Shown piece after piece: positions 5,142 to 58,362 of a stretch of DNA of 64,000 bases. How positions within the stretch are numbered: position 1 is the first letter of the stretch; every line of letters starts with the position of its first letter. The notes under the pieces were generated by a model. That model did no database searches, had not been told where the DNA came from, and was given only the letters and a program-made list of their open reading frames with translations. Location: the NCBI GenBank assembly GCA_964653575.1, contig CAZZFP010000001.1, positions 36,600 to 100,599 on the forward strand. The letters are read 5' to 3'. The position numbers and the translations under genes were made by a program. Source of the stretch: an uncultured Lachnospiraceae bacterium. GTDB lineage: Bacteria; Bacillota; Clostridia; Oscillospirales; CAG-272.

Positions 5142-5219
5142 GAGCTCAAATGCGAAAAATAAGCGCATAACCTCATTTTGAGTTATATTCACAAGATTTT
5201 TTGCCACTGAAAAAGATCA

Positions 5220-5780
5220 TTAATCGATACACAGCTTTCCGAGAAGACGATTTTTACCGTTTTCATATGCGTATAGCTCGTCTCGCTTTATAAACCATTC
5301 TCCACGCCGCCTTAAATAGTTATATATTTCTCTTTTGCGCTTTTTATCAGCTTCACAAAGCATATCGATCAAATGATATTGCGGCAGTACGAAGCGTTTG
5401 TCTTTTATTGAATACAGATAGGTATGACGTATCTTTTGTGTGGACCAATCCTTACGGTTTGTTGCAAATTCGGTAAAAATATCAACATAAAATATCGATT
5501 CGGATACGCTCTTCTCTTTTATTGAAAAGCTGTATTTTGCGCGCAAGCCCGTACGATTATCGGGTAACGAGAGCAGCTGATCCTTGAGCTTGCTTTTTGC
5601 ATATTCGAGTACCTTATCTTTGATCAGCTCTGCGGTACCGCTTACACTGTTAAGCGGATACTCTATCCTGACTCTTATAAGATCACATCCATTATGCCTT
5701 ATACCAAAGGACTCAAGAATATTTTTTTCGTCACCGACATTTGCTTCACTCAGAACGGCGTTTTCGACTTTTTTTGCCAC
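5220..5780 (-). CDS. hypothetical protein
   Basis: Intact ORF. The best start is GTG at 5780, preceded by GGAGG with 8-nt spacing. The listed 5849 start is a TTG inside promoter-like sequence. No family recognised. Confidence 0.5.
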   Translation of the reverse strand: MAKKVENAVLSEANVGDEKNILESFGIRHNGCDLIRVRIEYPLNSVSGTAELIKDKVLEYAKSKLKDQLLSLPDNRTGLRAKYSFSIKEKSVSESIFYVDIFTEFATNRKDWSTQKIRHTYLYSIKDKRFVLPQYHLIDMLCEADKKRKREIYNYLRRRGEWFIKRDELYAYENGKNRLLGKLCID

Positions 5781-5865
5781 AGCATTATCCTCCGTTTTTA
5801 TTATCAATGTATGAGATATTACTTTGCAAAATAACAATTGTCGCGTCAAAATATTAAGTCAAAAA

Positions 5866-5897
5866 TAAGGACCCCCGCCGAGGCGGAAGCCCTTATC
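5866..5897 (-). terminator. rho-independent terminator of the lipoprotein gene
   Basis: On the minus strand: AAGGGCTTCCGCC-TCG-GCGGGGGTCCTT followed by ATTTTTG. Confidence 0.65.
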
Positions 5898-5951
5898 TTA
5901 TTTGATTAGCTTAGCTATAACTAAAACTACTTAGTTAGCAGAAAGTCAATT

Positions 5952-8141
5952 TTAATTGCCAGCTACGGTTGCTGCTTGTGCTACGTTTGCCTTAGCAACT
6001 GTAAGAGCATCGCTCATAACCTTAGCAATAGCCGTATCCTTAACAGTGTCGGTTTCGTACTCAGCTACGTCAGCCTCTGCTGTAGGAATATCTTTGAGGA
6101 TCTCTTCGAACTCAGCTACGAGAACAACGAAATGCTCCTTAGCCTGTGCATCAGCCTCAGTTGCCTTATCAGCGTACGTAAATGCTCCACCGCTAAACTT
6201 CATCTCTTTGATTGCGGAGATGTATGCAAGAACTATGTTCTTAGCAGCATCCTTTGCTCTCTGAGTTGCAGGAACTACAGTAAGTTTACCGTCGATGTAC
6301 TGAGCAGTGAGCTTAGCAATCGCATTGATAGCGTTCAACTTGTAAGTCTCATAATTGTCGTTCGTGTCAACAACAGCCTTAACTTCGTTGTAGCAATCAA
6401 GAATTACCTGCTTAGCAAAGTCTTCTGTAGCCTTCTCGTCTACATAAGCCTTGAGCAGTGCATTCAGTTCGCTCTGGATAGCTTCGGAGGTCTTATCCTT
6501 ACCGTTATCATCCTTAGTAGGTATCGTACTCTTGAGCTTAGCAACCTGCTGGAGGTAGTAAACGAAGCCGTTTACATCATAGTCAACATATGATGTAGCT
6601 GTCTTGTTTGCATTTACGACCAAGTCAAGATGCTTTATAGCATAATTCCACTTATCGTTGAGATTGTCACCGGCATACTCGTTGTTTGTATCTGCCTGAT
6701 AGAATGCGTTCTTCCAAGCAAGCTCTGCCTCCATTACATCAGCGAAGAGAGTACCGAGCTTTGTGATCTGTGCCTTGTAAGCTTCATTATCAGTAGCCAG
6801 GCTCTGCATTGCATTAAGAACAGACTTGATAGCCTCTGTCTTGAGCGTATTGTAGTTATCCTCATAAGCAACCTCAAGCCACTTTTCAAGGACGGGAGCG
6901 AAGTAAACAACATACTCATCATCAGCAGTCTTGGAAACGCCGTTGTTCTTATATTGCTTGTCAATAGCCTTAACGCCGTCCTTGTCAGCTGTCTTGACTT
7001 CCTTAAGCTCTACCTCAGTGGGTTCGTACTTTGTACCAACAAAAGTTACATAATCAGTGTAGAGATCCTTAAGTTCAGTAAGTCTGGAAGCATAAATCTT
7101 CTTAACAACATCATCGCTCAGAGCCTTTGCGAGGTTTATAGCGTCAGCCTGTGCCTGGGATACAGCAGCAGTTGTAACTTTTCCGTTAGCATCCTTCACT
7201 TCATCTACTTTTTTCTGGAATGTGATACCAAGAGCCGTAAAAGCAGTCTCTATATAGTCGCGGATATCATCATTGACATCTTTGCATTCAGCCTCAAGAG
7301 CTGCTTTCTTCTCGACTGCATACTCAAGTTTACCAACGGAAATACCCTTAGCGGTTGCCTGAGCCTGAACCGTTGCATATGTTGTGCACCACTCATCATA
7401 AGCCTTCTTTGCAGCTGTGATCGCATCTGCATCAAGTGTGGTAACAGGGAAGCTGATCGCATCAATAAGTGCTGCAACCTTCTTAGCCTCGGAATCAGCC
7501 GTAGCTATTCCGTTAAGTTCTGCCTCTATGTCAGCAACAATGCTGTCAAGATCATCATCACTTACAGCTCTGTAAAGTCTGATCTTTGCTGCGTAGCAGA
7601 GGTTAAGAGCTTTCTCGTAGTCCTCTTCAGTGTAGTACTCTTTCTCTCCGAGAATCTTCTTCTCAAGAGCATCGATATCTATGCACTTTGCAATGATCTT
7701 CTCGGTTGCGTTCTTCCAAGCTTCGATATCGATCTTGCTGTTAGCAAGGTCTTTGAGCTCTGTAGCCTGGCTTGTAAGTGTGGAGCTTACGTTGGCAATA
7801 GCTGTGTCAACGAGCTTCTTTGCAACTGCTTCAACATCAGATGTCTTTGCATAGTCTGCAAGAGCGGTCTGAATGTCAGTTGTCTTAGCGTAACCTGCAA
7901 GTGCAGCCTCTATCTTAGCCGCAACTGTTTCCTCGGACACGCCTGCCTCGAGATCTTTAAGCGCGTTTTCAACAGCTGTTGTGAGCTGCTGCTGTGTAAC
8001 AGCGGCATCTGCTGCCTTCTTAGCTGCTTCTGCAGCATCGCGTGCTTCCTGGTCTGTACAACCAACAAGGCACATAGCGAGAACTGTAACAAGAGCAAGA
8101 ATTAAAGCTATGTTTCTTTTTGTTTTGTTTAAGTTAAGCAT
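5952..8141 (-). CDS. large alpha-helical Ala/Lys/Glu-rich surface lipoprotein
   Basis: The signal peptide carries a lipobox (ALILALVTVLAMCLVGC). About 700 aa of low-complexity helical sequence follow, with a local tandem motif LAGYAKTTDIQTA/LADYAKTSDVEAV. GAGGAGG lies 5-6 nt before the ATG at 8141. Confidence 0.75.
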   Translation of the reverse strand: MLNLNKTKRNIALILALVTVLAMCLVGCTDQEARDAAEAAKKAADAAVTQQQLTTAVENALKDLEAGVSEETVAAKIEAALAGYAKTTDIQTALADYAKTSDVEAVAKKLVDTAIANVSSTLTSQATELKDLANSKIDIEAWKNATEKIIAKCIDIDALEKKILGEKEYYTEEDYEKALNLCYAAKIRLYRAVSDDDLDSIVADIEAELNGIATADSEAKKVAALIDAISFPVTTLDADAITAAKKAYDEWCTTYATVQAQATAKGISVGKLEYAVEKKAALEAECKDVNDDIRDYIETAFTALGITFQKKVDEVKDANGKVTTAAVSQAQADAINLAKALSDDVVKKIYASRLTELKDLYTDYVTFVGTKYEPTEVELKEVKTADKDGVKAIDKQYKNNGVSKTADDEYVVYFAPVLEKWLEVAYEDNYNTLKTEAIKSVLNAMQSLATDNEAYKAQITKLGTLFADVMEAELAWKNAFYQADTNNEYAGDNLNDKWNYAIKHLDLVVNANKTATSYVDYDVNGFVYYLQQVAKLKSTIPTKDDNGKDKTSEAIQSELNALLKAYVDEKATEDFAKQVILDCYNEVKAVVDTNDNYETYKLNAINAIAKLTAQYIDGKLTVVPATQRAKDAAKNIVLAYISAIKEMKFSGGAFTYADKATEADAQAKEHFVVLVAEFEEILKDIPTAEADVAEYETDTVKDTAIAKVMSDALTVAKANVAQAATVAGN

Positions 8142-9368: not shown

Positions 9369-11222
9369 TCAATATGCGCGAATCTCGTACACCGTAATCT
9401 TATCCGCTCCGTTGGTTGACAGGATATGTATCTCGGCGGTATCACACTCGGTAGGTTCGAAATCAAGGACGTTCTGCCTTTGATGATTGCCCTTTACCTC
9501 TATCTCGCGTACGATCTCGCCGTCTTTAACGAGCTTAACGGTATAGTCCTTTACGAGCTCTGCGGGAACGCCTATTCTCTGCTGACCCTGACGATTTGCC
9601 GACATCGTGACTCTGATAGGATATCTGAAGTCGGAATCAAACGTAAGTCTGAGCTGTTTGAGCGTTTTTGTTCCCTCAAGCTTCATTGTAATGGTCTCGC
9701 CGTTCTCGGAGATGCCGTCAGACACCCAAGCATTGAGATCTGCGCCGAGCTTTCTCGAAATTCCGTTTACGACGTTTGCGGGCTCTCCGCCCATGATATG
9801 CGAAGAAGCGGTAAACGATGCGCTCCTTGCCATATCCTTTTCATCCTCATTTTTAAAGCCGGGAAGGAAGCAGTCATCCTTCATAAGAATCTGCTGAAGT
9901 TCGCCGACGTGGGGCGCAAGCTCTCTCGGGTCGCAATCATACTTCTTGCAAAGTGCCGCCGCGGTACCTACTGCCTGACCGCCGATAGCGCAGCAGGCGA
10001 TTATTCTCGTGCTGGCAAGTCCGAGCTTTGTTGTGCTTATGTCTCTGCCCGCCATAAAGAGGTTATCTATATTTTTGGAGTAATATGAACGATAAGGGAT
10101 CGTATAAACGCCGAGGAAGTGATGACAATCGCTCGGAAGGACATCAAAATCAAGGAGTCCGTGAGGTGCGTGAAGGTCGATGCACCAACCGCCGTACGCC
10201 ACGGCATCATCAAATATCTTATGATCGAGAATATCGCTCTCACTGAGGACGTAATCACCCATAAGTCTGCGGCTCTCTCTCATACCCGGAAGTGCGCCGA
10301 CCCACTCGAGCGTATAGTTTTCCGCGCCGTGGTCTCCGCCGTTCTTAATATGATCCCAAATGCCGTATGCGTATGCCATAAGGTCGTCTCTTATGGTTTC
10401 AAAATCGGGGATGATATCGTCACCGTCTCCCATAAGCTCGAGCCACCAATAACCGTAATCGACTGCGGCACAGCTGAATGCGGAGAGTCTGAGCCATTCC
10501 TGCGGGTCGGGTGCCATACTTGAATCGACTTTCATAGTCTTTGAGTGCACTCTGTACCTGAGCTGTTCCTCGGTCAGATGCTTTGCGAAAGAAGGCGGAG
10601 TGAATTTAACGGGATGACCGACGTTTACGGCCTTCATAAGGATGGTGTTACCCATTCTCTCGTTATTGGGCTTTTCCGGAGCGTGCGGCTCGCCCGTCTG
10701 CGCCTGCGACTCGCTTCCCTGCCTGTACTCTGCGCCTGCGTAATATCCGAGCGTACCGTTACCCGTTGCATCGACAAAAATATCGGCATTGAATTTGTAA
10801 CGCATTTCCGTCGTTTCCTGGAAGCAGTTTATGGAGGTAATACGGTTTCCGTCCGTCTCGCAATCGTACATAGAGGTATTTAAATATAATGTAAGATTTT
10901 TTTCCTCCTTTGCCTTTTGATGGAGGACCATATCCCAGATCGAATAGTTAAAGAAATCGTTTTGACTTTTGTTTTCAAGCATAAGCTCATAGAGAAGTCC
11001 CGTTTCTTCATAATCGGGTTGTTTCAAGCTTTGGCAAGCTCCCGAGATATGTATTCTTATCTCACTCGACGCATTTCCGCCAAGGACAGGTCTTGCGTGA
11101 ACGAGCGCGGTCTTAGCTCCGTGTCTTGCCGCGGAGATTGCCGCACACAAGCCGGACATTCCGCCGCCGACTACCAAGACTTCATACGATTCTTCTCTGA
11201 ATCTTTCCTGAACTCTTTTCAT
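9369..11222 (-). CDS. FAD-dependent oxidoreductase (PF12831-like) with C-terminal beta-rich domain
   Basis: Dinucleotide-binding motif YEVLVVGGGMSGLCAAISAARHGAKTALV. The family is often linked to glycan use. The start is probably the ATG at 11222; the listed start at 11258 is TTG. Confidence 0.75.
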   Translation of the reverse strand: MKRVQERFREESYEVLVVGGGMSGLCAAISAARHGAKTALVHARPVLGGNASSEIRIHISGACQSLKQPDYEETGLLYELMLENKSQNDFFNYSIWDMVLHQKAKEEKNLTLYLNTSMYDCETDGNRITSINCFQETTEMRYKFNADIFVDATGNGTLGYYAGAEYRQGSESQAQTGEPHAPEKPNNERMGNTILMKAVNVGHPVKFTPPSFAKHLTEEQLRYRVHSKTMKVDSSMAPDPQEWLRLSAFSCAAVDYGYWWLELMGDGDDIIPDFETIRDDLMAYAYGIWDHIKNGGDHGAENYTLEWVGALPGMRESRRLMGDYVLSESDILDHKIFDDAVAYGGWCIDLHAPHGLLDFDVLPSDCHHFLGVYTIPYRSYYSKNIDNLFMAGRDISTTKLGLASTRIIACCAIGGQAVGTAAALCKKYDCDPRELAPHVGELQQILMKDDCFLPGFKNEDEKDMARSASFTASSHIMGGEPANVVNGISRKLGADLNAWVSDGISENGETITMKLEGTKTLKQLRLTFDSDFRYPIRVTMSANRQGQQRIGVPAELVKDYTVKLVKDGEIVREIEVKGNHQRQNVLDFEPTECDTAEIHILSTNGADKITVYEIRAY

Positions 11223-11343
11223 ATCTATCTTATTTCCTTTCACGGTTTTTGCACACAATTATGCGTTGTACTGATTATATCACAAATTCAATAATAAATC
11301 AACATTTTTTCGGTAAAAAAGAAAAAGCGGACAAATGCAAACA

Positions 11344-11373
11344 GCGGACGGCGCGCTAAAAGGCGCCGTCCGC
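11344..11373 (-). terminator. stem-loop downstream of the DAC-like gene
   Basis: Perfect 11-bp arms GCGGACGGCGC / GCGCCGTCCGC with an 8-nt loop. The U-run on the minus strand is only moderate (TGTTTGCATTT). Confidence 0.5.
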
Positions 11374-11396
11374 AAAAATACGTAAAATATGATCGA

Positions 11397-12917
11397 TCAA
11401 TTAATGGAAAAGGCAACGTAGGCTTCCTTATCCTTACATCTATATGCCGTAATATCGCCGTCGGCGGATATTTTGATCCCCATACCGAGCTTTGCTATGG
11501 AGCGCGCGGCAAGTGTTCTGCCGCCTGTTCCGCCGCCCTCGACCTTAACTATCGTTCCGACGGTTATAAATCTGCCGCTCGCGTCGATCAGCATAGCTCC
11601 ATCGAACGCGGCACATTCCATTCTCAGCTTACGGTTTGTCAATACAAAATCTCTCGGCTTCTTATCGTACCATATCAAGCTCGCAAGCGCAAGCTTACGC
11701 TCCGCATCGCTGTCCGTTACTCTGCCTATGTCATCCGTTTCGATCTCGTACTTACCTGCAAGATAATCCTCGTACACGATCTTATTTTTATCTATAAGGC
11801 GTGATACTGCCGACGTATTTTTTATGATACCGAGGCATCCGCCGGTGTAGGAAAATGAAACATCTATAAGGGTCTTATATATTTCTTTTGCAAGGCGGCT
11901 GTATTCCCACATTTTCGTTCTATCCGCATCCGGATCGTCCTCAGACAGAAAAGCCGTGATATCGTCAATAACGCTTACAGGATCAAAAAAGCTCCATTCA
12001 TCGTTACGCTTGCCGAATATCAGAGCCGAATCCTTTATGATGAGTATATCGCCGGACTCAAGTGAAATTATTCCGATCTTATTATCGCGGCATACAGAGG
12101 CGAAACCGGCGTATTTATAAGGCGCCAGCATTTTGTTTGCCATATTCGCGACGCTTTGCTCTGACCCGTCATCCGTGACCTCATCCGTCTTGAGATCCGG
12201 ATAATCGTAATCACTGCCGTCGTACATAGTGTAGAGGCTTTTTATCAGCTTCCCGTTTTTATCAAGATAGACCGACGAAAATACTCCGTCCGAAACGAGC
12301 GCGCTGTTTCGGTTGTTCAGAAAGCCGATATAATCCATCGATCCGCATTCCAGCTCTTTATCAATTATAACGCCGAATGAAAAGTGCTTCCCCTCGTAGG
12401 TCTTTCGCGTCCAATTGTCAAGCTTGTGCAGTAGCCTGAAAATGGTAAGTCCGCAAGCATCCGTCCCGCCGAGCCAGCTCGAGAGCCCCTTTTCAAAGGC
12501 AATATCCGTTATAGATTCAAGATAGATATAGTTATCGTCAAACAGTCTGTCAAGGAGCTGAGCGTATCCGCCCGAAGCGCTCTCCTCGTATTCGTATATA
12601 CTTTTAGGAGAGGTCACGGATACTATCTCGGCAAGGATCGCCTCGGTCGCTCGAAAAACGTAATTCTTGCCCGCCGGCAAAAGTATATCTACGGTAAATG
12701 CGGGATTTTTCTTCTGCGGTACTATCGTAAGCATTCCGCTCGCCTTATCATAGTTGACCAAACGATTATATTGAGACTCTTCCCTTTTTCTTGTAATATG
12801 ATCCGAAAGCGCCGAGCCCTTGATTCTTATCGGCAGCAAAGGGATTATATATTTTTTCATAATAAAGCTGAATTCGCGCACTATCGCTTTATATCCATCG
12901 TCCGAAATATATATCAT
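11397..12917 (-). CDS. uncharacterised protein with C-terminal DisA_N/diadenylate-cyclase-like fold (RHR motif lost)
   Basis: The C-terminal ~150 aa read YTGGCLGIIK...AAFDGAMLIDASGRFITVGTIV...GGGTGGRTLAARSIAKLGMGIKISADGDITAY. These align by eye to GALIVI...HDGAVII...GTRHRAA...IVVSEETG.IS of CdaA/DisA. DGA is kept, and RHR is replaced by RTL. No family recognised for the N-terminal ~330 aa. Confidence 0.5.
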   Translation of the reverse strand: MIYISDDGYKAIVREFSFIMKKYIIPLLPIRIKGSALSDHITRKREESQYNRLVNYDKASGMLTIVPQKKNPAFTVDILLPAGKNYVFRATEAILAEIVSVTSPKSIYEYEESASGGYAQLLDRLFDDNYIYLESITDIAFEKGLSSWLGGTDACGLTIFRLLHKLDNWTRKTYEGKHFSFGVIIDKELECGSMDYIGFLNNRNSALVSDGVFSSVYLDKNGKLIKSLYTMYDGSDYDYPDLKTDEVTDDGSEQSVANMANKMLAPYKYAGFASVCRDNKIGIISLESGDILIIKDSALIFGKRNDEWSFFDPVSVIDDITAFLSEDDPDADRTKMWEYSRLAKEIYKTLIDVSFSYTGGCLGIIKNTSAVSRLIDKNKIVYEDYLAGKYEIETDDIGRVTDSDAERKLALASLIWYDKKPRDFVLTNRKLRMECAAFDGAMLIDASGRFITVGTIVKVEGGGTGGRTLAARSIAKLGMGIKISADGDITAYRCKDKEAYVAFSIN

Positions 12918-12950
12918 CTACCGTTTTCCTTTGCGTGAAATTAACACTTT

Positions 12951-13889
12951 TTACTGACCCTGCGTCTTGTTTTTTACGAATATAACCGCAGATTTCGGGT
13001 TTTGAGGATCCTCAACAATCTTTTTACTGTCAAAGAGGTCGAGACTCGTAATAAAGGTTATCATCTTTGAAAATCCGTAGTTTCGCTGATCAAAATCCGG
13101 ATAACGCTTCCTGAGTACGTTTCCGACGTCGCTTAAAAGTATCCATCCGTCGTCATCATCCTCCGCAAGCTCATCGGCTATCATAACAATTGCGTTTTTG
13201 ATGGTATCGATATCGGTAACGGAGGTTTCGTCATCGTCCAGTGAAACACCGGCAATAAGATCGTTGACAGCGTCAGATACCGTAATATGTGCCTGAGCAT
13301 CCACCGCAGGCTTGGAGCCGGTTTTCTTTTCGGTCTTTTGACGAGCCTTCTCGCTTTTTTCCGCTTTTTCGTTCTTCGTATTTTTATCGTTTCTTTCGAC
13401 TTTACCCGATCTTTCGGAAGGCGAATTTTTCTCGGACGCTTTCAGTATCTTATCAATGTAGATAAAACGATCACACGCCGAAACGAACGGACGCGGAGTT
13501 TTTTGCTCACCCATACCTATGACAGTCATTCCCGACTCACGGAGTCTTGAAGAAAGCCTTGTAAAGTCACTGTCGGACGAGGCGATGCAAAAACCATCGA
13601 CCTTCCCCGAATAAAGTATATCCATCGCGTCTATTATCATTGCCGAATCCGTAGCGTTTTTTCCTACCGTATAGCTATATTGCTGCATAGGCGTTACGGA
13701 ATGTTCCAAAAGCACCTGTTTCCAAGGAGCGAGAGTCGGAGAGGTCCAATCGCCGTATATTCTTTTATATGTTGCGACACCCTCCTTAGATATCTCGTCA
13801 AGTATTATTTTTATATATTTTGAACCGATATTGTCGGCATCTATCAGTATTGCAAATTTGAGATCGTTACCGCTTTTTGACATACGCAT
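12951..13889 (-). CDS. NYN/LabA-like nuclease domain protein with C-terminal OST-HTH (LOTUS) domain
   Basis: The N-terminus reads FAILIDADN...YGDW....L..W........P.QQ.....GKNATDSAMIIDAMD....GKVDGFCIASSDSDFT.L..RLRE.G..V.G.G, the LabA/NYN signature. A Lys/Glu-rich linker follows. The C-terminus (GWILLSDVGN.LRKRYPDFDQRNYGF.KM..F) fits an OST-HTH domain. Confidence 0.8.
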   Translation of the reverse strand: MRMSKSGNDLKFAILIDADNIGSKYIKIILDEISKEGVATYKRIYGDWTSPTLAPWKQVLLEHSVTPMQQYSYTVGKNATDSAMIIDAMDILYSGKVDGFCIASSDSDFTRLSSRLRESGMTVIGMGEQKTPRPFVSACDRFIYIDKILKASEKNSPSERSGKVERNDKNTKNEKAEKSEKARQKTEKKTGSKPAVDAQAHITVSDAVNDLIAGVSLDDDETSVTDIDTIKNAIVMIADELAEDDDDGWILLSDVGNVLRKRYPDFDQRNYGFSKMITFITSLDLFDSKKIVEDPQNPKSAVIFVKNKTQGQ

Positions 13890-13932
13890 CTCCTTTCATT
13901 TTTAACCTTTAATGCTTCGCATATGCGACTAT

Positions 13933-14874
13933 TTAAAAATTACCGTAATCGCCAAGGAAGTTTTTCTTTGTCTCTTCATCGGCATTTATACCCGCATCAT
14001 AAAGTGCTTCAACCGCGCAACCGTAAACAGGCGGAACAGTGGACATAATCACGTTTATCTGCTCGGGGCACGCCGCTTTTACCGCCTCAACATATTCGGG
14101 AAAATGCGCGAATATACCGCCATTGAGCACCATATCAAACGGCTTTCCCATTTTTCTGTAAGCCGAAAATGCCACGTCTCCGAGCTCCTTTGCGCACAGG
14201 TTGAATATATTATTGGCAACCGTATCACCGAGCCTTCTTGCCTCGAATACACACTCGGCAAACGACGCGATATATGGTCTACCCTCGGAATATATATGTA
14301 CATAATCCTCCCAAACGGTCTTACCGATCTTTTTTTCGATAAGCTCGGTAAGCACGGTAGGCTGTTCCCTTCCGTCTTGCGCACGGCAAACGGCTCTCAG
14401 CGCCATACAGCCGAGAACATATCCGCTTCCGCAGCTGTCGATGAGCGGTCCCCAGCCTCCCGTATGACTGTATTCCTCGCCTTTTCTGAAGTACAGAGCC
14501 GAACCGGTACCGCATATCATTGACGCGCCATCGACGTGTCCGAGCATACCCGAAATAAGGCAGGGGCCGTCGCCCTCGACTCTGATCTTGCCGACGTTAA
14601 GATTATCCCTAAACCATTCCGCAAGAGCATCTCCGTAGTATTCAACCGCGGCTACGGAGCCGTAAAGAGTTTCGACCGTGCCGTCCTTTGCGCTTTCGAA
14701 GAGCTCATTCAGTACTCCGAGATAATGCACCTTGGCATTGTCAAATCCGCGATCGACGGGATTGCCCCCCTTAGCCAAAATTCTCGACACTATATGACCG
14801 TCCTCGGTGACAAGCACCGCGTCAAGCTTTGATCCGCCCACGTCAAATCCCGCGTAATATTTTTTTTGCGACAT
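13933..14874 (-). CDS. BadF/BadG/BcrA/BcrD-type ATPase (N-acetylglucosamine-kinase-like)
   Basis: YYAGFDVGGSKLDAVLV phosphate-1 motif, CGTGS and GGWGPLIDSCGSGY motifs of the ASKHA sugar-kinase family. Confidence 0.75.
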   Translation of the reverse strand: MSQKKYYAGFDVGGSKLDAVLVTEDGHIVSRILAKGGNPVDRGFDNAKVHYLGVLNELFESAKDGTVETLYGSVAAVEYYGDALAEWFRDNLNVGKIRVEGDGPCLISGMLGHVDGASMICGTGSALYFRKGEEYSHTGGWGPLIDSCGSGYVLGCMALRAVCRAQDGREQPTVLTELIEKKIGKTVWEDYVHIYSEGRPYIASFAECVFEARRLGDTVANNIFNLCAKELGDVAFSAYRKMGKPFDMVLNGGIFAHFPEYVEAVKAACPEQINVIMSTVPPVYGCAVEALYDAGINADEETKKNFLGDYGNF

Positions 14875-15035
14875 ATTATGAGTATTCCTTTCGATTTTAA
14901 TATTCGATTTGAATTTTATTTTATCTTGATTTTGTTTTTTCGAGCGATACGCACCCGACGTAAATAAGTATCAATAAAATTATACCACATATTGAAATTA
15001 TGTCAAGTAAAAAAGCCTCAAAAAGCAGATCTTGC

Positions 15036-15064
15036 TTGACTTTGACCCATCAATGATGTATAAT
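15036..15064 (+). promoter_or_regulatory. sigma-A-type promoter
   Basis: TTGACT (15036-15041), a 17-nt spacer, then TATAAT (15059-15064), upstream of the NUDIX gene. Confidence 0.55.
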
Positions 15065-15105
15065 ATGAGCGTAATACAAACACCGATGCGGAAGGAGAGC
15101 CATAT

Positions 15106-15573
15106 ATGAAGCAGACCACATTATGCTATATTGAAAAAGACGATAAGTATCTTATGCTTCATCGAATAAAGAAAGAAAATGACGAGAACCACGACAAATG
15201 GATAGGCGTCGGCGGAAAATTTGAGGACGGCGAAAGCCCCGAAGATTGTATGCTGCGCGAGGTTCTTGAAGAGACGGGGCTTACGGTGACCGATTGGAAA
15301 TATTGCGGCATCGTGACCTTTGTGTCGGATATATGCGAATGCCAGCATATGCACCTGTTTAAATGTACGGAGTTTTCGGGAGAAATACGCGAATGTGACG
15401 AGGGAGTGCTCGAGTGGATCAAAAAGAGCGAGCTGTTAAGGCTTCCTATGTGGGAGGGGGATGCTATATTTTTAAAGCTTCTCGATTCCGACCGTCCGTT
15501 CTTTTCATTGAAGCTCAGCTACCGCCGCGACACGTTAATCGGCGCCGTACTTGACGGCAAGGCGATAAAATAG
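15106..15573 (+). CDS. NUDIX hydrolase (MutT-like)
   Basis: Nudix box GVGGKFEDGESPEDCMLREVLEETGL. GGAGAG RBS upstream. Confidence 0.85.
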   Translation: MKQTTLCYIEKDDKYLMLHRIKKENDENHDKWIGVGGKFEDGESPEDCMLREVLEETGLTVTDWKYCGIVTFVSDICECQHMHLFKCTEFSGEIRECDEGVLEWIKKSELLRLPMWEGDAIFLKLLDSDRPFFSLKLSYRRDTLIGAVLDGKAIK

Positions 15574-34675: not shown

Positions 34676-36871
34676 TCAGCTTATGGAACGCGGATCTATC
34701 CTGAAAAGCTCTGTTATCTCGGCGTAAAGCTCGGGGTATTTTCCGAGCGAGGGATCTTCTTCTATGAGTTGCTTTGCGTCGTTTACGGCACTCTCAAAAA
34801 GTCCCGTATCGTCACACATATCGGCAAGTTTAAGTTTAATCCCGCCGCTCTGCCTTATTTCAGACCCGGAGGCATTTGCCAAGAAATCGCCGGGACCGCG
34901 AAGGCTGAGATCCTTTTCGGCTATAACGTAGCCGTCATAGATGTTTTTCATTGTGTTCAAGCGTTCGGAAGCCGTCGAAGGCGCCGCTCCGTTCGCCCGC
35001 TCTTCTCCGTTAACGAGAATGCAGTATGACTTACGCTTGCCGCGTCCGACTCTGCCTCTGAGCTGATGCAATTGCGAAAGTCCGAAGCGCTCGGCGTTTT
35101 CGACTATCATAAGGCAAGCGTTCGGAACATTGACTCCGACCTCGATCACAGTGGTCGAGACCAAAACTTGAATATCTCCGTTTGAAAACGACTTCATTAT
35201 CAAGTCCTTCTCCGTGCCCTTCATCTTTCCGTGAACGAACGCCACGGAAATTCCGCAAAGCTCCTCGGCAAGCTCGGAAGCAAATTGTACCGCCGACTTC
35301 ATTTTAGGCTTTTTGTGTCCATTTTGAAACACAGAAATATCCTCAAAAGAAATCTCATCATCCGCCGCCTCGTCCTCGCTGTCAACAGCGGGGCAAACGA
35401 CATAAGCCTGTCCGCCCTCGCCCACGAGCTTACGGATAAACGCGTTAAGGCGAGCTCTGTAACTTTCATCCACCACGAATGTATCGACCCGTTGCCTTCC
35501 GGGAGGCATATCTGATATCTTTGAGATATCGAGATCTCCGTACATAACAAGTGCCAACGACCGTGGAATGGGTGTCGCGCTCATAACCAAAAGATGCGCG
35601 CCGTCGTTTTTATCGGACAGCGCCGCCCTTTGTCGAACGCCAAATCTGTGCTGTTCGTCGGTGACGACTATCCCGGGACGGGCGAACTCCACGCCGTCCG
35701 AAAGAAGTGCCTGTGTTCCTATAACCACATCTATTCTTTCTTTTGAATCCGAGCAAGCGAGTCCTGCGTATATTCTTCTCTTGTTTGCAGGCGTCACCGC
35801 CCCCGTCAGAAGCTCACATCTTATTCCGAGCTTTGCAAAGAGGCAAGACAGATCGCTGTAATGTTGATTTGCGAGTATCTCGGTAGGCACCATAAGCGCC
35901 GCCTGTCTGCCGTTTTTAACGGCTATGTACATAGCCGCCGCGGCACAGACCGTCTTGCCGCATCCGACGTCTCCGACAACAATACGGCTCATTTTATAAG
36001 GAGAGGACATATCCTTTTTTATGGCTTCTATCGCAGACCGCTGACCGTTGGTAAGGCTAAATTCAAGTAAAGACTCAAGCTCCGACGTATCCGTATCCGC
36101 GCAAGCAAAGGCAGGCTCACGTTCGTGCTTTTCGTGCGTCATCCTCATACCGAGTGCGAAGGTCAACAGCTCGTCGTACATAAGACGTCGTTTCGCCTTG
36201 GCAAGCGACTCATAAGAATCGGGAGAATGTATGGTTTTTAACGCATACATAAGCGTCGGAAGACCGTTTTTTATCATCAATTCATCGGGAAGCGTATCCT
36301 TGAGAGAAAGCGACGCCATAGAAAGCGCACTCTTTATATCCTTTTGAATTTGAGTACCGCCAAGTCCCTCCGTAAGTCGATAAACGGGATAAAGCTCAGG
36401 CAGAGGAGTCATTTCATCATACGGCTCAGCCACGGGACTCGCCATAAAAAAAGCTCTTCCCTTTTTTTCTACCTTTCCCCAAAATCTGAAGGTCTCACCG
36501 GGGACAAATTTGTCTGCATAATACGGCTGATTGAAATATGTTATCTCGCAGCTGTCAGCCCCATCAAAAGCACGGAATTTGGTAAGATACATCCGTCCTC
36601 GAATTCTGGCTGTCCTCGGCACGGTCGCAACAGTCAATATGACCGAGCACCTGACGTCGGTGGGCGCCGTATTTAACGTGACTATATGCCCTCGATTTTC
36701 ATATGCCCTTGGAAAATGACGCAAAAGATCCCAGACCGTGTATATGCCAAGCTTTGCATACTGCGAGGCTCTGACTTTGCCGACACCGTGAAGCGTACTT
36801 ATCGACGCCGAATATATATCGGGCGAATATGTATCCTGCACGGTCCTCACCGCCTTTCCCCAAAATATCAA
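34676..36871 (-). CDS. recG: ATP-dependent DNA helicase RecG
   Basis: It has a wedge domain and helicase motifs: motif I GDVGCGKT, motif II VVTDEQHRFGV, MSATPIPR, motif VI QLHQLRGRVGRG. Confidence 0.92.
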   Translation of the reverse strand: MIFWGKAVRTVQDTYSPDIYSASISTLHGVGKVRASQYAKLGIYTVWDLLRHFPRAYENRGHIVTLNTAPTDVRCSVILTVATVPRTARIRGRMYLTKFRAFDGADSCEITYFNQPYYADKFVPGETFRFWGKVEKKGRAFFMASPVAEPYDEMTPLPELYPVYRLTEGLGGTQIQKDIKSALSMASLSLKDTLPDELMIKNGLPTLMYALKTIHSPDSYESLAKAKRRLMYDELLTFALGMRMTHEKHEREPAFACADTDTSELESLLEFSLTNGQRSAIEAIKKDMSSPYKMSRIVVGDVGCGKTVCAAAAMYIAVKNGRQAALMVPTEILANQHYSDLSCLFAKLGIRCELLTGAVTPANKRRIYAGLACSDSKERIDVVIGTQALLSDGVEFARPGIVVTDEQHRFGVRQRAALSDKNDGAHLLVMSATPIPRSLALVMYGDLDISKISDMPPGRQRVDTFVVDESYRARLNAFIRKLVGEGGQAYVVCPAVDSEDEAADDEISFEDISVFQNGHKKPKMKSAVQFASELAEELCGISVAFVHGKMKGTEKDLIMKSFSNGDIQVLVSTTVIEVGVNVPNACLMIVENAERFGLSQLHQLRGRVGRGKRKSYCILVNGEERANGAAPSTASERLNTMKNIYDGYVIAEKDLSLRGPGDFLANASGSEIRQSGGIKLKLADMCDDTGLFESAVNDAKQLIEEDPSLGKYPELYAEITELFRIDPRSIS

Positions 36872-58202: not shown

Positions 58203-58277
58203 GCTGGTGTGGCTCAATGGCAGAGCAGCTGATTTGTAATCAGCAGGTTGATGGTTCGACTCCGTTCACCAGCTCCA
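58203..58277 (+). tRNA. tRNA-Thr (UGU)
   Basis: GCTGGTG-TG-GCTCAATGGCAGAGC-A-GCTGA-TTTGTAA-TCAGC-AGGTT-GATGG-TTCGACT-CCGTT-CACCAGC-T-CCA. Folded by eye. CCA is encoded. Confidence 0.9.
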
Positions 58278-58280
58278 TAT

Positions 58281-58362
58281 GGGGGAATTCCCGAGCGGCC
58301 AAAGGGGGCAGACTGTAAATCTGTTGTCACTGACTTCGGTGGTCCGAATCCACCTTCCCCCA
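58281..58362 (+). tRNA. tRNA-Tyr (GUA)
   Basis: GGGGGAA...GCAGA-CTGTAAA-TCTGT, then a long variable arm, then GGTGG-TCCGAAT-CCACC-TTCCCCC-A. Folded by eye. Confidence 0.9.

Follow-up and report, generated by a model that had tools for sequence, protein, structure and literature searches.

A NYN-LOTUS gene paired with a gene for a divergent diadenylate cyclase-like protein in a clade of gut and rumen Clostridia

We analyzed a stretch of 64,000 nt from an uncultured Lachnospiraceae bacterium (GenBank assembly GCA_964653575.1, contig CAZZFP010000001.1, forward-strand positions 36,600 to 100,599), hereafter the window, and focused on two adjacent genes encoded on its reverse strand. The upstream gene (gene A) encodes a protein with an NYN ribonuclease (RNase) domain and an OST-HTH/LOTUS domain. 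The downstream gene (gene B) encodes a protein whose C-terminal domain is a divergent member of the diadenylate cyclase (DAC) superfamily. A previous sequence-only reading had described two co-directional genes lying 33 nt apart, and both open reading frames (ORFs) were recovered with this spacing. The pair comprises the following features (window coordinates):

12951-13889 (-): ORF of gene A, 312 aa; the probable start at 13883 gives 310 aa
13452-13859 (-): NYN RNase domain, residues 11-146 (Pfam PF01936, E = 1.6e-35)
13275-13451 (-): Lys/Glu-rich low-complexity linker, residues 147-205 (42% K/E/R/D)
13020-13184 (-): OST-HTH/LOTUS domain, residues 236-290 (Pfam PF12872, E = 1.4e-14)
12918-12950 (-): intergenic spacer of 33 nt with an AAGGA ribosome-binding site for gene B
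11397-12917 (-): ORF of gene B, 506 aa; variable N-terminus, conserved N-module and divergent DAC domain
12543-12917 (-): variable N-terminal region of gene B, residues 1-125; many relatives match the profile only from about residue 110-150 onward
11982-12530 (-): conserved N-module of gene B, residues 130-312; invariant columns KTYEG (E175 invariant), P266 and W308
11400-11921 (-): divergent DAC/DisA_N fold domain, residues 333-506 (Foldseek, HHalign and PF02457 matches of relatives)
11595-11603 (-): DGA motif, D439-G440-A441 (conserved in 79/79, 79/79 and 78/79 sequences), aligned with D171-G172-A173 of CdaA
11517-11525 (-): GGR motif, G465-G466-R467 (79/79, 75/79 and 79/79), followed by T-L-A-A and aligned with T202-R203 of CdaA
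11457-11474 (-): KISADG strand with K482, S484, D486 and G487 (78-79/79), the equivalent of the DAC strand VVSEETG
11344-11373 (-): intrinsic-terminator-like hairpin 3' of gene B, with an 11-bp stem, 10 GC pairs and an imperfect T-tail

The ORF of gene A opens with two in-frame ATGs (window 13875-13889). An AGGAG motif abuts the first of them and lies 6 nt from the second, and an identical database protein (cluster P0160) is 310 aa long. Based on this spacing and on the length of the database protein, the second ATG (13883) is probably the true start. The spacer between the two genes presents neither a terminator nor a promoter-like site on the coding strand. The hairpin at 11373-11344(-) is the sole strong terminator-like site in a scan of positions 11100-15200, in agreement with the earlier claim that the only such hairpin follows the second gene.

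The domain searches confirmed the architecture that had been proposed for gene A: an NYN domain of the LabA/LK-nuclease type, a Lys/Glu-rich linker and an OST-HTH/LOTUS domain. The linker differs in both length and sequence between homologs. Homologs as distant as 52% identity all retain the NYN residues D17, D19, N20, D81, D87, D106 and D108, and since these include the acidic residues of the domain, the product of gene A is expected to be an active RNase. Homologs of the NYN-LOTUS protein are very numerous (at least 8,000 at E ≤ 1e-20), and their identity falls sharply from at least 67% to at most 56%. No match to gene A was found in PADLOC-DB v2 (E ≤ 1), and the only matching phage profile in PHROGs is phrog_37744, of unknown function. 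Gene A, which keeps all NYN acidic residues, shares its architecture with bacterial LK-nuclease/OST-HTH proteins and eukaryotic MARF1/Limkain-b1. When the bacterial proteins were described in 2010, no conserved gene neighborhoods were reported and a stand-alone RNA-degradation enzyme was proposed (PMC2848206). In contrast to this description, the clade of gene A possesses a conserved downstream partner.

The product of gene B presented no match at E ≤ 1 in Pfam, NCBIfam, PADLOC or PHROGs. Searches of PDB sequences with phmmer and hmmsearch, using the protein itself, an 11-sequence profile or a 79-sequence profile, were also empty. We therefore relied on structure and on profile comparisons. 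An AlphaFold2 model of reasonable confidence was built on 11 homologs (predicted local distance difference test, pLDDT, 78; predicted TM-score, pTM, 0.81). When this model was compared with PDB using Foldseek, the matches ranked 1-46 were all DAC domains of CdaA or DisA (E from 2e-3 to 6e-2, probability of about 1.0, TM-score to the target of 0.5-0.59), and the match after rank 46 had E > 2. We also compared the C-terminal module, represented by 79 sequences, with a DAC profile of 10 sequences that included a CdaA reference checked against 6hvl/4rv7 and eight annotated DAC genes from plasmid records. HHalign aligned the two profiles over 121 columns, approximately the whole domain (Prob 78%, P = 1.7e-5), and paired LDGA with HDGA, GGR-TL with GTR-HR and KISADG with VVSEETG. 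A two-sequence CdaA profile was too thin to serve as the target (P = 0.048), and ten sequences were needed. Finally, 13 of the 79 relatives matched the Pfam DAC family PF02457 (E ≤ 0.01). The matches always fell in the C-terminal region, and two relatives passed the gathering cut-off of 27 bits (P0045 with 27.8 bits and P0051 with 27.3 bits).

The C-terminus of gene B (residues ~333-506) is a real DAC fold, as these results show. The sequence-only reading had aligned this region to DACs by eye, and Foldseek and HHalign both support this assignment, in the register that had been proposed, while no sequence library detects a DAC in gene B itself. It had also named the lack of a DisA_N-fold match over residues ~350-506 as the outcome that would speak against it; the 46 CdaA/DisA matches are the opposite result. 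We nevertheless consider this domain a divergent member of the DAC superfamily and not a member of the DisA_N family, because it lacks the RHR motif and because the protein of the window remains below the Pfam threshold. Relative to the canonical DACs (CdaA, DisA and CdaS; PF02457), gene B shares the alpha/beta fold, the DGA motif, the position of the first Arg of RHR and the Ser-containing strand (VVSEETG, aligned with KISADG). It differs by about 30 additional residues between beta1 and DGA, and by the absence of the His and second Arg of RHR across its whole family. It also possesses neither the membrane anchor, nor the DisA linker and HhH, nor the helices of CdaS.

The conservation of the putative active site was determined across 79 family sequences, fusion proteins included. 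Five residues (D439, G440, G465, R467 and D486) are found in all 79 sequences and three others (A441, K482 and S484) in 78. In the HHalign alignment, the exact pairing of D486 with the DAC Glu is uncertain. R467 occupies the position of the first Arg of RHR, and the motif itself is replaced by R467-T468-L469, exactly as the sequence-only reading had stated. This change is family-wide. Position 468 is occupied by T, L, G or S and position 469 mostly by A, and neither His nor Arg is among the five commonest residues at either position. Since it is shared by the whole family, the absence of RHR is, as judged from the alignment, an ancestral signature of this family (DGA...GGRxAAA...KISxDG) rather than a recent decay.

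Does this signature imply a loss of cyclase activity, as had been suspected? In DisA of Mycobacterium tuberculosis, the replacement of RHR by AAA abolishes both ATP binding and activity, with all three residues mutated together (PMC3328451). On the other hand, PanS, a minimal defence DAC, is active and makes cyclic di-AMP (c-di-AMP) or 3'3'-cUA with catalytic sites described as 'DGF and GGR', and no product is formed by VcPanS mutants of DGF and GGR (10.64898/2026.08.10.743927). The D68A and R105A mutants of EcPanS lack activity, and this enzyme carries G104 and A108 in place of T107 and T111 of TmDisA (PMC13640721). The residues G466-R467-T-L-A470 of gene B match G104-R105...A108 of EcPanS, in a comparison made by published residues and not by sequence alignment. 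Because an active PanS uses DGF and GGR, the loss of RHR need not imply inactivity. The doubt raised about cyclase activity, which was based on the missing RHR, is weakened by the invariance of D439, G440 and R467. The tight conservation of these positions suggests a functional pocket in gene B, which could be catalytic.

The family of gene B is much larger than its annotation indicates. An exhaustive profile search yielded 1,246 representatives (clustered at 50% identity) at E ≤ 1e-3, of which 423 reach E ≤ 1e-30. In comparison, a word-indexed search with gene B returned ten clusters at 90% identity, all of them unnamed, and repeating it with the 79-sequence alignment returned the same ten. 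Most members are 400-500 aa long and are labeled 'hypothetical protein' in RefSeq/NCBI. Matches in genomes were distributed across Clostridia, Christensenellales, Planctomycetota, Verrucomicrobiota, Alpha- and Gammaproteobacteria, Myxococcota, Bacteroidota and Acidobacteriota. A single match was labeled 'phage' in GenBank: a 6.6-kb faecal contig deposited as 'UNVERIFIED Bacteriophage sp.' (MT837587.1, locus L057), with a family member at positions 5205-6536 (27% identity). This record is unannotated, its long ORFs overlap on opposite strands, and its viral origin is doubtful.

The core of the family extends from about residue 130 to the C-terminus and consists of the N-module and the DAC-like module, whereas residues 1-125 are missing or replaced in many members. 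The ~330-aa N-terminal region had been reported as unrecognized, and so it remains: no profile library matched it, and a separate model of residues 1-325 (pLDDT 74) found no significant match in PDB with Foldseek (best E = 0.23). The order of secondary structures in the N-module (residues 130-312) resembles that of the DAC module. HHalign produced a weak colinear match of 25 columns between the N- and C-modules (P = 0.027), and P = 0.087 between the N-module and DACs. The idea that an internal duplication made the N-module a second DAC-like domain is therefore unsupported, given these weak values and the empty Foldseek search, and we retain it as a hint only. The N-module may be a degenerate DAC similar to DACNH. 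The DACN-type sensor families (DACNG and DACNH) that had been suggested for gene B were not detected by Pfam, either in its product (E ≤ 1) or in the 79 relatives (E ≤ 0.01).

We then examined how consistently the two genes are associated. Without exception, a NYN-LOTUS gene lies upstream of the close relatives of gene B (49-99% identity), and the pair was found in three contexts. In the window and in two other loci (L011 and L052), a BcrAD_BadFG-type gene is followed by the NYN-LOTUS gene and then by the DAC-like gene. A second context (L004/L012) presents the same downstream chromosomal genes as the window, encoding an FAD oxidoreductase and a LytTR regulator. In the third one (L001/L013), the pair is located downstream of small genes encoding ArdA, DUF6809 and DUF7659, and is followed by a 1,758-aa superfamily I helicase with a restriction endonuclease domain (DUF4011/AAA_11/AAA_12/MTES_1575) and by a Ser/Thr kinase. 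This arrangement of pair, helicase and kinase (L001 5007-13485 and L013 6007-13813; sheep-colon Clostridia metagenome-assembled genome, MAG) resembles a conflict cluster of four genes carried by a mobile element. Helicases of the MTES_1575 class have been tied to restriction-modification (R-M) systems (2013 HEPN survey). Across the pair contexts, the orthologs are 69-73% identical for NYN-LOTUS and 51-58% for the DAC-like protein, and where the two genes are directly adjacent their spacing is 31-37 nt. Flanking genes are common to the window, L011, L052 and L012, which leaves only about two independent observations of the pairing. The pairing of NYN-LOTUS and DAC-like genes is real, but it is limited to one clade of gut and rumen Clostridia. 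The co-occurrence across genomes that had been proposed as a check therefore holds over three contexts and within this narrow clade only.

Outside this clade, members of the gene B family are associated with other domains and neighbors. Four proteins carry an Abi_2 domain (AbiD/AbiF-type HEPN) fused N-terminally to the whole unit of N-module and DAC-like module (E down to 7e-43), and further N-terminal fusions involve radical SAM and Schlafen AlbA_2 domains. The DAC-site residues are still invariant in these fusion proteins. On plasmid pRvVAT039d of A. vitis (L042 6617-12417), the family gene (WP_235678681.1, annotated as hypothetical) terminates 118 nt away from a convergent type II CBASS (an antiphage system that signals through cyclic oligonucleotides), whose operon encodes a patatin, a DncV-like CD-NTase, ThiF and MPN; it also adjoins the TraA relaxase region. 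A BLAST search for a second family locus adjacent to a CBASS was negative. Other plasmid copies were found among conjugation genes (Vescimonas) and insertion sequence elements (Paracoccus). In a Phycisphaeraceae MAG (L029 1399-10756), the family gene belongs to a tight same-strand cluster in which it is preceded by genes for a DarG-like macro domain, a 447-aa protein, a type III methyltransferase (PADLOC E = 0) and a 130-aa protein, and is followed by genes for a UvrD-type helicase and a 214-aa protein. In a Bacteroidota MAG (L034 4359-7882), it shares 4 nt with the 3' end of an Eco57I/type IIG R-M gene, an overlap suggestive of translational coupling. ParB_N and HNH proteins were also found among the neighbors. 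A PADLOC scan of 113 neighbors from 16 diverse loci additionally identified ThsB (1e-106), AriAB (5e-164), PDC-M41B and PDC-M30B; these matches were pooled over loci, and only those of L029 were placed on an individual locus.

Housekeeping genes are likewise common among the neighbors of the family. In Christensenellales and related Clostridia (L014-L028, e.g., L014 1012-3153, as well as L005-L007), a gene for a 232-aa sigma-70 protein (r2/r4 and HTH_3) is always located ~75 nt upstream of the family gene. This family gene encodes 452 aa and is followed by a gene for a 485-aa protein and by MgsA, with Spo0A and LeuRS nearby.

DAC domains were tied to anti-phage defence only in 2026, through PanS (Panoptoo/PanDA) and CdaG (CBASS-DAC), and gene B resembles each of them in part. 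Like PanS (August 2026 preprints), it combines a DG(F/A) motif with GGR and has Gly and Ala flanking the catalytic Arg. However, PanS is a constitutively active, DAC-only protein of ~150 aa, whose two-gene operon also encodes the 2TM-beta-barrel (S2TM-beta) effector that it represses, whereas gene B encodes 506 aa with an N-terminal region of ~330 aa, its partner is NYN-LOTUS, and no transmembrane or beta-barrel protein is encoded next to it. A PanS sequence was also sought on plasmids with the CdaA domain, and this search returned only canonical CdaA, CdaS and DacZ, which went into the DAC profile. CdaG/DS-2C (DACNG-DACNH-DAC; CBASS-DAC, Liu-DS2) has a layout comparable to that of gene B, with ~550 aa, an N-terminal 'sensor' region and a C-terminal DAC. 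It is linked to defence islands and CBASS, and one member of the gene B family adjoins a type II CBASS. The DACNH module of CdaG is reported as a degenerate, non-catalytic DAC-like module. In contrast to gene B, the DAC of CdaG is described as a canonical DisA_N that keeps DGA/RHR and makes c-di-AMP. The third parallel is with Abi_2 (AbiD/AbiF) HEPN proteins: this RNase effector is fused in cis in the four relatives, which parallels the RNase encoded in trans in the window. Genes of the Abi2-type HEPN are reported with R-M, ParB and HNH neighbors (2013 HEPN survey), which resemble the neighbors of the gene B family. The window itself, however, contains no Abi_2/HEPN domain, NYN being a member of the PIN-like nuclease superfamily and not of HEPN. 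As the sequence-only reading had concluded, no named system corresponds to the pair, and PADLOC has no model for either protein.

We tentatively favor, with somewhat less than even confidence, the reading in which gene B is a nucleotide-dependent sensor or switch that controls an RNase in a conflict module directed against phages or mobile elements. A trigger would be perceived by the N-terminal region of gene B; the DAC pocket would bind a nucleoside triphosphate and would probably carry out nucleotidyl transfer; and the output would be the control of an RNase. In the clade of the window this control would be exerted in trans through NYN-LOTUS, so that the products of genes A and B would act together, and in other clades the effector would be present in cis (Abi_2/HEPN, Schlafen-AlbA_2 or radical SAM). 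Direct allosteric coupling would be favored over a diffusible messenger, because of the cis fusions and because NYN-LOTUS proteins have no nucleotide-sensor domain. On this reading, the biological role of the family is presumably defence. The signaling or conflict flavor ascribed to the pair by the sequence-only reading is supported in the wider family by the fusions and by the CBASS, R-M and PADLOC-listed neighbors; the locus of the window lies among housekeeping genes.

Several observations weigh against a sensor-controlled RNase module. NYN-LOTUS has no known nucleotide-sensor domain, which leaves the reading of a DAC product unexplained, and the loss of two of the three RHR residues could impair catalysis, given the M. 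tuberculosis DisA mutant. The pairing itself is not strict. In L012 (4835-6928), an unrelated gene for a predicted lipoprotein of 697 aa (beta-helix-like repeats, lipobox LLCAC, no Pfam match) separates the two genes. The NYN-LOTUS homologs at ~54% identity (Anaerovorax, Anaerotruncus and Sinanaerobacter) have other neighbors, and the hidden Markov model of the gene B family found no member at these loci. No family member outside the narrow clade has a NYN neighbor and, apart from NYN-LOTUS, no neighbor family recurs between independent loci. The defence genes among the neighbors were counted without a background, and most of the PADLOC matches are not placed on loci. The stable, core-like synteny of the Christensenellales gene after the sigma-70 gene is unlike that of a typical defence gene, and PADLOC-DB v2 has no model matching either product (E ≤ 1). 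In the window, the flanks are of housekeeping type (NUDIX hydrolase, S11 peptidase, FAD oxidoreductase and LytTR regulator), with no CBASS genes near the pair. Finally, we found no relatives of gene B in IMG/VR contigs and no structural relative in BFVD, which provides no sign of phage carriage.

The DAC-like domain could alternatively be catalytically dead and act solely as a sensor of a nucleotide (for example ATP, c-di-AMP or a nucleotide derived from phage), controlling the partner or fused RNase by allostery. None of the 79 members has the His or the second Arg of RHR, the triple mutant of M. tuberculosis DisA loses ATP binding and activity, and the HHalign register offers no unambiguous counterpart to the metal-binding Glu of the VSEE strand. 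In addition, effectors fused in cis suit allosteric sensing better than a diffusible signal, and the DACNH module of CdaG provides a precedent for a degenerate module of this type. However, the Asp of DG(F/A) that is catalytic in PanS and the Arg of GGR are invariant in the family, with flanking G and A residues matching EcPanS. The M. tuberculosis mutant was changed at all three RHR residues, such that the His and second Arg were not shown to be individually essential, and decayed sites usually show less invariance than D, G, GG-R, S and D do across phyla. We regard a dead sensor as rather unlikely. The same degree of doubt applies to a serious rival, in which the two genes are unrelated neighbors, namely a stand-alone NYN-LOTUS gene beside a solo DAC-like gene that was inserted in one lineage, with an adjacency that is mainly vertical. 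Such a scenario is consistent with the abundance of NYN-LOTUS homologs, which usually occur without this partner, and with the original survey of LK-nuclease/OST-HTH proteins, which saw no conserved neighborhoods. It is also consistent with the variable or absent partners of the gene B family elsewhere, with the tolerance of an unrelated gene inside the pair in L012, and with the shared flanks that make the window, L011, L052 and L012 non-independent. But the pair is also found in the quite different, mobile-element-like context of L001/L013. Moreover, the spacing of 31-37 nt, the ribosome-binding site and the absence of an internal terminator point to co-transcription, and the fusion of relatives to RNase-type effectors (Abi_2/HEPN) parallels an RNase acting in trans.

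The least likely possibility, which we consider very improbable, is that gene B is a housekeeping cyclase producing c-di-AMP or a related molecule, atypical in sequence and devoted to osmotic, cell-wall or developmental control. Its DAC fold retains the DGA and first-Arg core, the context in the window is housekeeping, and the Christensenellales genes show stable synteny after sigma-70 and near Spo0A, LeuRS and MgsA. No canonical DAC was found within the 64-kb window, which says little as the window is part of a genome. Against this possibility, the family is patchily distributed and rare among database proteins (the ten clusters of the word search), and copies of it occur on plasmids as well as next to CBASS, R-M and other defence genes listed by PADLOC. 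Some members are fused to domains of the abortive-infection type, and gene B presents no membrane, DisA-linker or CdaS-type regulatory parts and no match to an NCBIfam DAC model. A more far-reaching proposal extends the favored sensor-RNase reading: the N-module and the GGR-type DAC would together represent a new, phylum-spanning branch of DACs, forming the sensor and signal core of RNase-based abortive-infection systems, with a product other than c-di-AMP. The product would differ because the triphosphate-binding His/Arg pair is replaced. We consider this proposal unlikely. If it were true, bacterial NYN-LOTUS (MARF1-like) RNases would be tied for the first time to nucleotide second-messenger immunity.

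The family of gene B would represent a third group beside PanS and CdaG, much larger than these and almost wholly missed by annotation. A catalytic pocket could allow the family to produce a new nucleotide signal, and a sensor pocket would constitute a new input module for Abi-type RNases. In both cases, gene B provides a concrete and testable partner for the bacterial NYN-LOTUS nucleases, whose function has been open since 2010 and whose eukaryotic relatives (MARF1) act in RNA surveillance.

Two further features upstream of the pair are relevant to its transcription:

13933-14874 (-): BcrAD_BadFG-type ATPase gene, 313 aa (ORF; orthologs in L052 and L053 annotated PF01869)
14979-15006 (-): consensus sigma-70-type promoter-like site, TTGACA-16-TATAAT with an extended -10 TG (12/12 match)

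The promoter-like site (15006-14979(-)) is the only one of consensus grade, and it is located upstream of the BcrAD_BadFG gene, which ends ~49 nt ahead of the NYN start with no terminator between them. Since the sole consensus promoter precedes the BcrAD_BadFG gene and no terminator separates this gene from NYN, the transcript may include three genes (BcrAD_BadFG, A and B). The two-gene operon that had been proposed is thus supported in its short spacer, ribosome-binding site and lack of a terminator, but it may not be complete at its 5' end. Neither L012 nor L013 has the BcrAD_BadFG gene next to the pair, and this gene is not a conserved part of the module. A near-consensus divergent promoter (15036-15064(+)) faces the NUDIX gene. 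Elsewhere in the window, two adjacent tRNA genes (58203-58362), unrelated to the pair, are the sole Rfam matches.

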